From assembly GCA_963817895.1 (NCBI GenBank), contig CAWFQB010000011.1:32001-96000 (forward strand): a stretch of 64,000 nt of DNA, in the 5' to 3' direction. This document shows positions 55,884 through 59,586 of the stretch, piece after piece (position 1 is the stretch's first letter; every line of letters starts with the position of its first letter). Source of the DNA: an uncultured Chthonomonadaceae bacterium. Lineage in GTDB: Bacteria > Armatimonadota > Chthonomonadetes > Chthonomonadales > Chthonomonadaceae. Both the position numbers and the translations under genes were made by a program. The notes beneath the pieces are model-generated. The model saw only the letters and a list, made by a program, of their open reading frames with translations, did not search any database and was not told the origin of the DNA.

Positions 55884-56552
55884 CTACTTGCGGGCGCGGC
55901 GCTTCAGGAACAGGCTTCCTGAGACGGCGATGCCGCCCATCAGGGCGAACGCGCCGGGTTCGGGAACATTCGTCACCAGTCCCTGAAATCTTTCGCCATT
56001 GGCATTGGAGGGACTGAGCCAGCGGACATTGGAAACCGGGTCTGTGCCGACATTGAGCAGGTAGGCGTTGTAAGCGGCAAGTTCGCCCGCCGTCGTGTTG
56101 CCGCCGGCAACCAGCGCGGTGTTCGGGCCGTAAATCGTGTGCCAGATAGCCCCCTGTAAACCGCCCTGCTGATCGTCGGTCAGGGCTGTGGCCGCGTAAT
56201 GGTCAATCAGATAGGCAACCTGTCCCGCATTGTTGACGGGCGCGCCGTAAATTGTGCCATCGGTCGTAACTCCCGTCGGCGTATAGGGGTTGGGTACGGT
56301 TACATTATGATCCAAATCAACGCAGTAGACGAAGGGGAGCGCCACATTGTCCAGCGTGGAAGGGGTGATGTTGCCGCCGCCCTCATCCTGCGTGGTAACG
56401 CCGCCATCGCGGGTTAAATTGATGTGTACAAAATGTCCGCCCAGAGTTAGCGTTTGTGCCTGCGTCACGGTAGGCAGGGCAAGGCCGCACAGCATCAGGC
56501 CGAAAGCGGAGCAGACAGGGGACAGGAGCGATTTGTAAGATAATTTTTTCAA
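55884..56552 (-). CDS. PEP-CTERM protein
   Basis: Signal peptide, YCVDL and QGAIW, C-terminal VPEPG + TM + KRRARK. Confidence 0.85.
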   Translation of the reverse strand: MKKLSYKSLLSPVCSAFGLMLCGLALPTVTQAQTLTLGGHFVHINLTRDGGVTTQDEGGGNITPSTLDNVALPFVYCVDLDHNVTVPNPYTPTGVTTDGTIYGAPVNNAGQVAYLIDHYAATALTDDQQGGLQGAIWHTIYGPNTALVAGGNTTAGELAAYNAYLLNVGTDPVSNVRWLSPSNANGERFQGLVTNVPEPGAFALMGGIAVSGSLFLKRRARK

Positions 56553-57886: not shown

Positions 57887-57915
57887 TTGTTAAGGGCGCA
57901 AGACTGTGTTATACT
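57887..57915 (+). promoter_or_regulatory. Sigma70-type promoter of the amber-tRNA locus
   Basis: TTGTTA-N17-TATACT with extended -10 TG. Confidence 0.65.
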
Positions 57916-57982
57916 GTGATTATAGAACAGTGGCTCTCGCGTAGCGCCGCGTGTTCATCAATCTGAAGAGAGTAAACTTAAC

Positions 57983-58063
57983 ATGTATTAGGGCATCATT
58001 CGCATAATCAGGATCAGGCAAGCGGCGGCTTTTTGTCATTGGGCAAAAAGGCGGCGCTTTTTT
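57983..58063 (+). promoter_or_regulatory. Leader minigene ATG-TAT-TAG followed by an attenuator-like hairpin and T-run
   Basis: Minigene 57983-57991; imperfect 17-bp hairpin 58021-58058 followed by a T-run. Confidence 0.55.
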
Positions 58064-58112
58064 GCGTTTTTTAGCCCCAACATTCTATATATCAACGGAA
58101 AAAGAGAAGACA

Positions 58113-58451
58113 ATGAGCAAACAGAAATCATCGGGTGAGCCGGTGGTCACCGGCAAAGCGGCCTATATCGCGCGGCTGCGGGCGGGCGAAACCGTCAGTT
58201 TCCGCGAGGGCGGCAACAGCATGACGCCCCGCATTAAATCGCGGCAGAAGTGTACATACAAGCCTGTGATGGCGGCTGAAGACGTGAAGGTAGGCGACGC
58301 CGTATTCTGCAAAGTGGGCGGCAACTACTTCACGCACCTGATTACCGCCCTGCGCGGCGACCAGTACCAGATCAGCAACAATCACGGCCACGTCAACGGC
58401 TGGATTACGCTCAACAGCATCTACGGCAAAGTAGTTGCGATTGAGGATTAG
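58113..58451 (+). CDS. S24/S26 peptidase-like protein
   Basis: GNSMTP Ser motif, VGD, and His in the general-base position (YFTHLI); ends in TAG. Confidence 0.65.
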   Translation: MSKQKSSGEPVVTGKAAYIARLRAGETVSFREGGNSMTPRIKSRQKCTYKPVMAAEDVKVGDAVFCKVGGNYFTHLITALRGDQYQISNNHGHVNGWITLNSIYGKVVAIED

Positions 58452-58527
58452 GAGGGTGTTCGGTGTTCGGTATTGGGAAGGGGTGGAACAAAGTAAAATC
58501 GTGTGCTATCAGTAAGTTTGAGATTAC

Positions 58528-58599
58528 GCCCGTGTCGCCATCTGGTGAAGGCAGCCGCCTCTAAAGCGGCCAAGATGGGTTCGATCCCCATCACGGGCA
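58528..58599 (+). tRNA. tRNA with CUA anticodon (amber suppressor-type); amino-acid identity uncertain
   Basis: Acceptor GCCCGTG/CACGGGC, D-stem GCC/GGC with GG in the loop, anticodon stem GCCGC/GCGGC, loop CT-CTA-AA, 4-nt variable loop, T-arm ATGGG-TTCGATC-CCCAT, discriminator A, no encoded CCA. Confidence 0.88.
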
Positions 58600-58642
58600 T
58601 AGTGACGTATCCGAACACCGAACACCGAACACCAAACATCGA

Positions 58643-58665
58643 AAGGAGTTGTCGCCATGTTGTAG
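58643..58665 (+). promoter_or_regulatory. Second minigene with SD: AAGGAG-N8-ATG-TTG-TAG
   Basis: Strong SD at optimal spacing before a 2-codon ORF ending in amber (58657-58665). Confidence 0.55.
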
Positions 58666-58762
58666 CCGCGCTCGCCGCCGTTTGCCTGAAAAGACAGAGA
58701 ACGATGCAAGAAATCTTTGCAGAAAACCTTCTACTTTTTACTTTTCAGGAGAACGAACACAA

Positions 58763-59155
58763 ATGAAGACATTGAACAGAACCATGACCGCGCGGTTTTT
58801 CCGCAGCGCGGAAGATTATGACCGTTTGATTGCGCTCTGGAGCGGCGGGATGCGGGACAGGGCAACGCGCCGCCAACTGACTGCCGCGCACCATCTGCTG
58901 TACCTGATTCTGCGTGGCCGCAACTGGCACTCGGCCTTTACACCGGTCACAAACGCCTGTAAACTGGAAAATGGGGGAGTATACAATTGGGGCGCGCGTC
59001 GCGCCGTCCATGCGCTCCATTATGGCAATGCAGAGGATTTGCTGGCTCCGTTTCGGGATATGCTTGCTCCTTCTGCGTTGGTTCTGGCGCGCGAACTGGT
59101 TCCGGCAGACAGTTGGAACGAGGCATTGCAAGGAGGCGAACCCTACCATGCCTGA
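58763..59155 (+). CDS. Hypothetical protein with HHLLYLILRG motif
   Basis: SD CAGGAG; overlaps the start of the Pth2-like gene. Confidence 0.65.
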   Translation: MKTLNRTMTARFFRSAEDYDRLIALWSGGMRDRATRRQLTAAHHLLYLILRGRNWHSAFTPVTNACKLENGGVYNWGARRAVHALHYGNAEDLLAPFRDMLAPSALVLARELVPADSWNEALQGGEPYHA

Positions 59156-59507
59156 ACTGCCGAACGCGCAGCCGAGCGGGCATGTGTATGTGTTCGTCCG
59201 CAGGGATTTGCCGATTGCCGACCAGATGGTACAGGCGGCGCATGTTTGTCTGGAAGCGGGCCAAAGGTTCTGCGTCCCCTGCCATTGCCCGCTTGTGTTG
59301 CTTCAGGTGGCGGATGAACCGGCCTTGCATCGCGCCTTGCAGCATTGCCGCCGATACGACATTGCGACGCACACGTTTACAGAACCGGACGCGACGGAGG
59401 AGTTTCCGCAAACGCCGATGGGCTTGACCGCCGCCTGTACGCCGCCCTTAAATACGGCGCAGCGCAGGCGTATGCGTCCTTTCACGTTATGGCAGCCTCC
59501 GTCGTAA
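59148..59507 (+). CDS. Peptidyl-tRNA hydrolase 2-like (PTH2 family) protein
   Basis: YVFVRRDL, QAAH, LVLLQV, EPD and TA motifs of the Pth2-like fold. Confidence 0.75.
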   Translation: MPELPNAQPSGHVYVFVRRDLPIADQMVQAAHVCLEAGQRFCVPCHCPLVLLQVADEPALHRALQHCRRYDIATHTFTEPDATEEFPQTPMGLTAACTPPLNTAQRRRMRPFTLWQPPS

Positions 59508-59556
59508 TTGCCATTCGCGTGTATTCGCGTGTATTCGCGGCTAAGTTCATTCCCCT

Positions 59557-59586
59557 AAACCCCTGTTGAAATTTCAACAGGGGTTT
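59557..59586. terminator. Perfect palindrome, probable terminator of the locus
   Basis: aaacccctgttgaaatttcaacaggggttt. Confidence 0.65.

Follow-up and report, generated by a model that had tools for sequence, protein, structure and literature searches.

A stretch of 64,000 nucleotides (nt) from an uncultured Chthonomonadaceae bacterium (contig CAWFQB010000011.1, assembly GCA_963817895.1; hereafter the window, its host genome being labelled G000) carries a compact set of genes whose expression is very probably switched on by readthrough of the amber codon UAG. The set comprises two short leaders that end in TAG, a tRNA with the anticodon CUA, tRNA(CUA), and a gene for a protein with the fold of peptidyl-tRNA hydrolase 2 (Pth2), and the confidence placed in readthrough as the ON signal is common to the preferred explanation and to the feedback, timer and sensor alternatives weighed below. 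Readthrough was favoured over stalling because an in-frame Pro-Pro lies past the TAG, the control hairpins are beyond the reach of a ribosome parked at the TAG, and homologues carry TAG codons within their reading frames. The parts form a single unit on the forward strand (57887-59586), in the order promoter, first leader (gate 1), terminator, S26-like gene, tRNA(CUA), second leader (gate 2), genes P2 and P3, and palindrome. An original prediction, made from the letters of the window alone, had listed these parts (promoter, leaders, terminator, open reading frames (ORFs), tRNA and palindrome), each of which is present where it was placed, and its view of one amber-gated unit supplying a CUA tRNA and a Pth2-like protein was borne out by a unit that is conserved and shared with phages. 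Throughout, G-numbers denote Armatimonadota genomes and L-numbers phage or viral loci, apart from L265, a metagenome contig, and L266 and L267, which repeat G011.

The second leader and the hairpin over the P2 start

Gate 2 consists of a Shine-Dalgarno (SD) sequence (58641-58648) and an upstream ORF (uORF), ATG-TTG-TAG (58657-58665), that is out of frame with P2. A ribosome reading through this TAG would add the peptide P-R-S-P-P-F-A before a TGA (58666-58689), with a predicted pause site at the Pro-Pro codons (58675-58680). The sequence encoding this peptide overlaps the anti-SD arm (58679-58693) of a hairpin (58679-58755, second arm 58741-58755) that hides the SD of P2. Leaders of this kind are a regular companion of the gene: one ending in TAG stands ahead of P2 in all six distinct bacterial-type loci, and a TAG-ended mini-ORF was present 65-123 nt upstream of P2 or P2-like genes in 16 of the 16 tested, 14 of them with an SD, against a background of 0.17 for any ATG mini-ORF ending in TAG. 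The pattern SD-ATG-NNN-TAG is expected 0.016 times per 2 kilobases (kb) of strand in G000, and the leader arrangement recurs with differing middle codons in five further distinct loci.

The frame beyond the stop codon was compared in 22 leaders, which were picked by eye and included one (L113) re-assigned to the TAG of an upstream ORF. Pro-Pro follows the TAG in frame in 18 of the 22 and in neither of the other frames (0/22 each), against a background of 3-6% (22/399 gene-ending TAGs in viral sequence, 95/1916 in the host, and 29/953 SD-led mini-ORFs of the host). Eleven different pairs of Pro codons are used among the 18 leaders, and in three leaders two TAG readthroughs are required before a Gly-Pro-Pro. 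Because the Pro-Pro is frame-specific, above background and encoded by 11 different codon pairs, the comparison argues that selection acts on translation past the stop codon. The homologues are related, so that counts of loci, bacterial or phage, do not represent independent events.

Ribosomes of Escherichia coli arrest at Pro-Pro preceding a stop, as has been described (PMC3834316). In folding calculations the SD core remained paired with a modelled ribosome at the gate 2 TAG. Compared with this position, a ribosome at Pro-Pro gave a computed opening of the SD core above 0.2 in 13/18 leaders and an increase in 17/18; in the window the value rose from 0.26 at the TAG to 0.55 at Pro-Pro. According to these models the second leader would be a translational attenuator, a role missed by the original prediction, in which the position of the ribosome on the uORF switches the accessibility of the SD. 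Further SD-ATG..TAG..Pro-Pro leaders were observed near CUA tRNAs in L066 (+, 3238) and L084 (-, 1063).

The first leader and the transcription terminator

Gate 1 is a uORF, ATG-TAT-TAG, behind a weak SD (57983-57991). The stem of an intrinsic terminator (58020-58074; arms 58020-58035 and 58044-58059, then a T-run) begins 29 nt past its TAG, and the frame past the TAG is open for 48 codons, spanning the terminator. The unit is headed by a sigma70-like promoter, TTGTTA-17-TATACT with an extended -10 (TG), that matches the consensus at 9 of 12 positions (57887-57915), and similar promoters occupy the same position in G011 and L265. Leader and terminator together were found in four loci (G000, G011, G053 and L265), the uORF reading ATG-CGT-TAG in G011 and ATG-TAT-TAG in G053 and L265. 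Where the start of the stem was measured it lies at a nearly constant distance from the TAG (+29 in G000, +30 in G011 and +31 in G053), the arms having changed in sequence yet remaining paired. In all three loci tested, a ribosome placed at the TAG left the computed pairing of the terminator at 0.85-0.94, and it dropped only after 10-12 readthrough codons. No Pro-Pro was found past the gate 1 TAG. A segment downstream of each leader (58014-58029 and 58674-58689) is complementary to the other at 15 of 16 positions, more weakly in G011.

Homologous loci in Armatimonadota

A survey of 401 Armatimonadota genomes found P2 in four (G000, G053, G115 and G356); G011 and L265 carry it as well. Over most of its length the unit is also matched, at about 90% identity, by contigs from three runs. 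All six distinct loci, five from genomes and one from the metagenome contig, show the tRNA(CUA), then the TAG-ended leader, then P2; the CUA tRNA and the amber leader of the original prediction are thereby retained in 6/6 each. G115 and G356 were first found through the tRNA pattern alone, the tRNA of G053 was called ambiguously by ARAGORN, and the leader of G356, which has no P3, begins with TTG or has lost its ATG. The Pth2-like gene itself contains an in-frame TAG at codon 3 in G053, codon 17 in G115 and codon 5 in L265, and since this adds to both leaders, G053 and L265 carry three amber gates.

The host is not recoded, because 929 of 3584 SD-led long ORFs in its genome stop at TAG, as the original prediction had judged from the window. 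Among the genes of the G000 assembly (7.5 Mb, 81% complete) are those for two class-I release factors and for Pth1, and its tRNAs for Gln, Tyr and Leu are of the ordinary kind. No PylS exceeded the cut-off in this incomplete assembly (best 27.9 bits against 178).

Amber gates in phages

Queries with the P3 family matched 30 and 33 GenBank phage records, nine of which were examined. In eight (ME3, RsoM2USA, BF, Arash, XbC2, XacN1, RAS14 and LR756511) the Pth2-like gene opens in frame with SD-ATG-(1-2 codons)-TAG; each of these eight phages also encodes a tRNA(CUA). The ninth, RaK2, is ungated: its gene has an ATG of its own, preceded by a TAG at a distance of four codons, and a search of 40 kb and of the pattern matches checked revealed no tRNA(CUA). 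Most of these genes are omitted or shortened in the GenBank annotation. ORF364 of XacN1, a fusion of an HD domain with a Pth2-like domain, opens with ATG-AAG-TAG in frame behind an SD; a second ATG lies five codons past the TAG without an SD, and translation may start internally there.

A second sample was formed of 97 viral loci chosen by the CUA-tRNA pattern (17 from one set and 80 of 118 from another), in which 20 Pth2-like genes could be scored after leaving out L027, truncated at the end of its locus, and the duplicate L075. Nineteen were gated, 11 by an in-frame TAG and eight through the TAG leader of a P2 or P2-like gene that they follow or are fused to; one was ungated. L124 has a frameshift as well. 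Loci picked instead by one P3 protein numbered nine (query included, seven distinct 5' ends); all were gated and seven had a tRNA(CUA). In a blind scan for in-frame stops the viral loci gave 20 TAG, nine TGA and one TAA candidates, with only 98 of 776 genes there ending in TAG, against 72 TAG, 131 TGA and 77 TAA in the host genome.

Other gated families that the blind scan brought out were FHFNK, MSIELK and HD-like. When the FHFNK family was picked by protein, an in-frame TAG was present in 50 of 51 distinct 5' ends (49 by pattern, one by eye), TAA and TGA in none, and a tRNA(CUA) lay within the locus in 44/51. The gated cargo spans Pth2-fold proteins of two kinds, including genes with the canonical GK-type motif (L067 and L083), and the HD-Pth2 fusions of XacN1 and RAS14. 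As to their distribution, FHFNK is an unnamed phage protein with its TAG at codon 2-5 (L037:2421-2978 +, L134:692-1255 + and L192-L255) that is present too in phages Atu_ph07, Phosso and RHph_I1_18. Members of the MSIELK family (L028:3182-3628 +, L080, L082, L094 and L099) stand right after a tRNA(CUA) with a TAG/Pro-Pro leader and no adjacent Pth2-like gene. The HD-like domain is gated by an in-frame TAG either alone or fused to a Pth2-like domain (L119:4733-5332 -, L268:376-1215 and L269:1018-1803).

The tRNA(CUA)

The tRNA of the window (58528-58599; ARAGORN, and Rfam RF00005 at 53.8 bits) has the anticodon loop CU-CUA-AA, G1:C72, A73 and a short variable loop, within a canonical cloverleaf with D-loop GG, TTC and a 5-bp anticodon stem. 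A tRNA-Pyl has no D-loop GG, no T-psi-C, a 6-bp anticodon stem and G73. That identity was rejected on shape, the 'Pyl' label of ARAGORN reflecting the anticodon alone, and a misassembled anticodon was rejected on the recurrence of CUA in six loci. A tRNA-pattern match in L045 proved to be a Ser tRNA.

Across gated loci the tRNAs share G1:C72 (54/58), A73 (43/58) and short variable loops on bodies that vary widely, whereas G1:C72 occurs in 0/8 tRNAs from loci judged recoded, the groups having been chosen by the present authors. By these features the tRNA(CUA)s of gated loci are not Gln-type and are distinct from those of TAG-recoded phages. Our guess for the amino acid inserted is lysine, from the identity rules G1:C72/A73/U35. 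Just 5' of the tRNA a weak extended -10-like sequence (58490-58512) was noted, a possible internal promoter for basal tRNA.

Proteins encoded by the unit

P3 (59148-59507) has a start that overlaps the stop of P2 and ends in TAA. Its structural model (predicted local distance difference test, pLDDT, 68) aligned with 1wn2 (PH1539), which we take to be a Pth2, at Z 8.8 and a root-mean-square deviation of 3.2 over 105 residues, and with 2gax at Z 8.9, the next unrelated structure reaching Z 4.3. Its profile matched Pth entries in the PDB at E 0.0015 and 0.031, and viral PTH2 clusters in the Atlas at 0.95. On this modelling P3 has a Pth2 fold and looks like a Pth2, of which family it is a candidate member. 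The catalytic set of Pth2 is Lys/Asp/Thr; in the P3 family Thr94 is invariant in 27 sequences and Asp81 is common. The protein may act as a peptidyl-tRNA hydrolase.

P2 (58763-59155, 130 amino acids, stop TGA) is all-helical in a confident model (pLDDT 94), carries the motif HHLLY..LRG..W..aF.P..N..KL.NG and belongs to an unnamed family of 528 clusters at 50% identity. It matched no family in Pfam, NCBIfam or PHROG, and its Atlas matches were below 0.9. Against the PDB no fold match was obtained (best Z 3.4), with one weak viral structural match, which does not by itself establish a new fold. A narrow query with P2 gave no matches in viral contigs or GenBank phages. The hhalign probability between P2 and the MSIELK/HIAYC family was 10%, so that the label 'P2-like' is a lead only.

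The first gene of the unit encodes an S24/S26-peptidase-like protein of 112 amino acids (58113-58451) with visible GxSMxP and H motifs, which scored below the cut-off of TIGR02227 (E=0.0036, 17.2 bits against 47) and had no match in a Pfam search. Its terminal TAG, counted among the amber features in the original prediction, is present in the window and is not conserved: the gene ends in TGA in G011 and L265, is truncated in the latter, and is absent from G053, G115 and G356. Homologues in G019 and G023 have no leader and are ungated. Judged by this distribution, the gene is a dispensable passenger or accessory.

What the gates may sense

In the preferred explanation, release factor 1 (RF1) and the unit's own tRNA(CUA) would compete for a UAG a few codons past a start. 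Should RF1 prevail, the ribosome would depart and the gene would stay off. If the tRNA wins at gate 1, the ribosome would enter the leader terminator and transcription would reach the tRNA, a positive feedback; at gate 2 it would pause at Pro-Pro over the anti-SD arm and expose the ribosome-binding site of P2-P3; at an in-frame gate of the homologues the protein would simply be finished. What a gate would measure is charged tRNA(CUA) relative to free RF1, and the trigger would be a fall in free release factor, with inhibitors, host defence or phage take-over as candidate causes of termination stress. In response, stuck UAGs would be read through, and the Pth2-fold and HD proteins may recycle peptidyl-tRNA or tRNA ends. 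Taken whole, with release-factor shortage as trigger and rescue as purpose, this explanation has in our estimation a little less than an even chance of being right. A more tentative proposal is that of a widespread amber-switch regulon, in which a dedicated non-Gln class of tRNA(CUA) would serve three gate designs (terminator, Pro-Pro/anti-SD and in-frame) that gauge the competition with release factor, and the Pth2-fold protein or P2, with the tRNA, would provide release-factor-independent clearing or control of UAG-stalled ribosomes.

Several observations weigh against readthrough-gated rescue as just described. Pro-Pro is missing in 4/22 leaders (two of these reading Ser-Pro-stop), and the computed opening of the SD was small in 5/18. 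G115 and G356 are without gate 1, and in G011 the readthrough frame of gate 1 stops at eight codons, with the terminator still paired at 0.84; P2 and P3 are both broken in that genome. P3 scores 13.5 bits against a gathering threshold of 23 for PF01981 and has Asp25 where Pth2 usually has lysine; none of P2, the FHFNK protein and the S26-like protein is known to act in termination.

The best placed of the alternatives, although a doubtful one, is a feedback of the outputs on the suppressor, in which the Pth2-fold protein, together with P2, would deacylate the tRNA(CUA) or would hydrolyse peptides transferred to that tRNA, tRNA and hydrolase then providing release at UAG independent of release factors. 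The unit would be a self-limiting loop like that of prfB. Genes that bypass an early stop usually encode a factor acting at that stop, as prfB does, and the absence of the canonical lysine from P3 hints at an altered specificity. Fusion of P2 or P2-like to Pth2-like proteins in L131 and L063, and a distinct tRNA class marked by its shared G1:C72, are also in keeping with feedback. Canonical GK-type Pth2 genes are, however, gated as well, the tRNA bodies vary widely, and unrelated cargo (FHFNK, HD, S26-like) stands behind the same gate.

It is unlikely that the gates form a delay timer, in which a phage tRNA(CUA) would build up during infection and turn gated genes on late, the bacterial copies being domesticated cassettes and the whole maybe a step to full TAG recoding. 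The unit is indeed common in standard-code phages and patchy in Armatimonadota, as the rarity of P2 illustrates, and recoding as timing control is proposed by Borges et al. (10.1101/2021.08.26.457843). With gate 1, however, the tRNA too lies under amber control in four chromosomal-type loci, and because of this an outside trigger is needed; in addition, the tRNAs of gated loci and of recoded phages are unlike in G1:C72, and the cargo does not consist of lysis or virion genes.

Gate 1 as an amplifier needing an outside trigger would also suit a sensor of amber-recoding invaders, tripped when a co-infecting TAG-recoded phage brings a suppressor tRNA or disables RF1 and starting a counter-measure, and Borges et al. 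also bring up the sensing of recoded phages during co-infection (10.1101/2021.08.26.457843). We consider this quite improbable: the unit brings its own suppressor, and it is found in phages that infect enterobacteria, Acinetobacter or xanthomonads. We know of no TAG-recoded phages of these three groups.

Least probable of all, to a point where we give it little credence, is that a stall at UAG, or peptidyl-tRNA drop-off of the kind caused by very short uORFs such as lambda bar, which a Pth2 would fit, is itself the signal, given that both control hairpins stayed intact in folding with a ribosome at the TAG, that in-frame Pro-Pro is conserved beyond the stop and that in-frame gates yield protein only via readthrough. 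The original prediction had named both stalling under RF1 shortage and readthrough; Pro-Pro, hairpin reach and the in-frame TAGs speak for the second and against stalling at UAG. Its emphasis on bar-like minigenes was not supported. The lambda bar minigene has a fixed ORF of two codons, the last sense codon of which ties up a tRNA, whereas the middle codons of the present leaders vary (TAT, CGT, TTG, CTT, CGG and CGA), their length ranges from 1 to 8 codons, and the frame downstream appears to be under codon-level selection. Minigene toxicity is probably not the point, because codons and lengths vary and the 'minigene' of many homologues is just where the gene starts.

Relation to known systems

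The prfB gene, for RF2, has an early UGA that is bypassed by a +1 frameshift, thereby sensing release-factor competition, and the bypass turns the gene on. The present unit would likewise sense such competition at an early stop, but bypasses UAG by a suppressor tRNA, has several gate designs and cargos, and does not yield a GGQ release factor. In leader-peptide attenuators, translational (erm/cat) or transcriptional (pyrBI/tna), the position of the ribosome on a uORF sets the folding. Here, too, that position would decide the folding of the anti-SD hairpin or the terminator, through the decoding of a stop and then a Pro-Pro pause rather than a stall induced by a drug or metabolite. The pyrrolysine system shares the CUA anticodon and differs in tRNA shape and in PylS, none being over the cut-off here.

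In code-15 phages TAG is read as Gln across structural and lysis genes and recoding is proposed as expression control (Borges et al., 10.1101/2021.08.26.457843). A phage-borne tRNA(CUA) permits genes with in-frame TAG in both cases; the present unit differs in its standard code, in having one (sometimes two) TAG per gated gene near the start or in the leader, in its attenuator hairpins, in a G1:C72 tRNA without Gln-type ends, and in being carried by bacteria also. Code-15 recoding was rejected on the TAG stops of the host, on the non-Gln-type tRNAs and on coding density, the gain from opening TAG not exceeding that from opening TGA at most gated viral loci. Synthetic UAG switches place a UAG beside the start, use multiple UAGs, or control transcription through a UAG within a leader peptide (PMC6412442); the present unit is natural, no orthogonal synthetase was found, and a native amino acid is presumed. 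Ribosome rescue has been proposed for the PTH2 of jumbo phages in a text whose accessible part does not mention suppressors (Iyer et al., PMC7824862), and the corresponding part of the XacN1 genome report lists two CUA tRNAs whose target genes were not identified by its authors (PMC5852040); in neither, to that extent, are PTH2 and a suppressor tRNA linked. No description of the unit, or of a natural gene switch by UAG readthrough such as comparison and folding suggest here, was found in the full-text literature, a search of main texts with few subscription papers.

Flanking features and neighbouring loci

Downstream of P3 a perfect 15-bp palindrome (59557-59586) is a likely terminator. Repeats flank the tRNA as inverted arms (58455-58478 and 58610-58633, spanning 58455-58633) and are considered to be outside the module; they are genome-wide, with a core 14-mer found 65 times in G000, and missing in G011. 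Upstream of the unit, the window encodes a PEP-CTERM protein with a weak thioester-domain match (55884-56552, -), an ordinary neighbour. Outside the window, G000 has an array of about 17 tRNA genes (C4:223181-230044), including a short-arm tRNA-Leu(CAG), beside integrase-like and transposase-like ORFs, and small clusters of atypical tRNAs, one with the anticodon ACA, at C1:603042-603212 and C3:373423-373740.

Significance

The unit offers a testable answer, with named cultured phages, to why phages with the standard code carry amber suppressor tRNAs. If the readthrough explanation is true, it would be a natural switch based on stop-codon decoding, like those already designed in synthetic biology, and would double as an intrinsic reporter of how active release factors are. 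The gated genes include real ones that annotation has missed or shortened; an amber-switch regulon, if true, would explain the suppressor tRNAs of standard-code phages and reveal a whole set of mis-annotated or missed genes. The unit may also be an intermediate towards TAG reassignment, and it suggests that translation termination is the subject of a conflict so far unrecognised, in which at least three unnamed protein families may take part.

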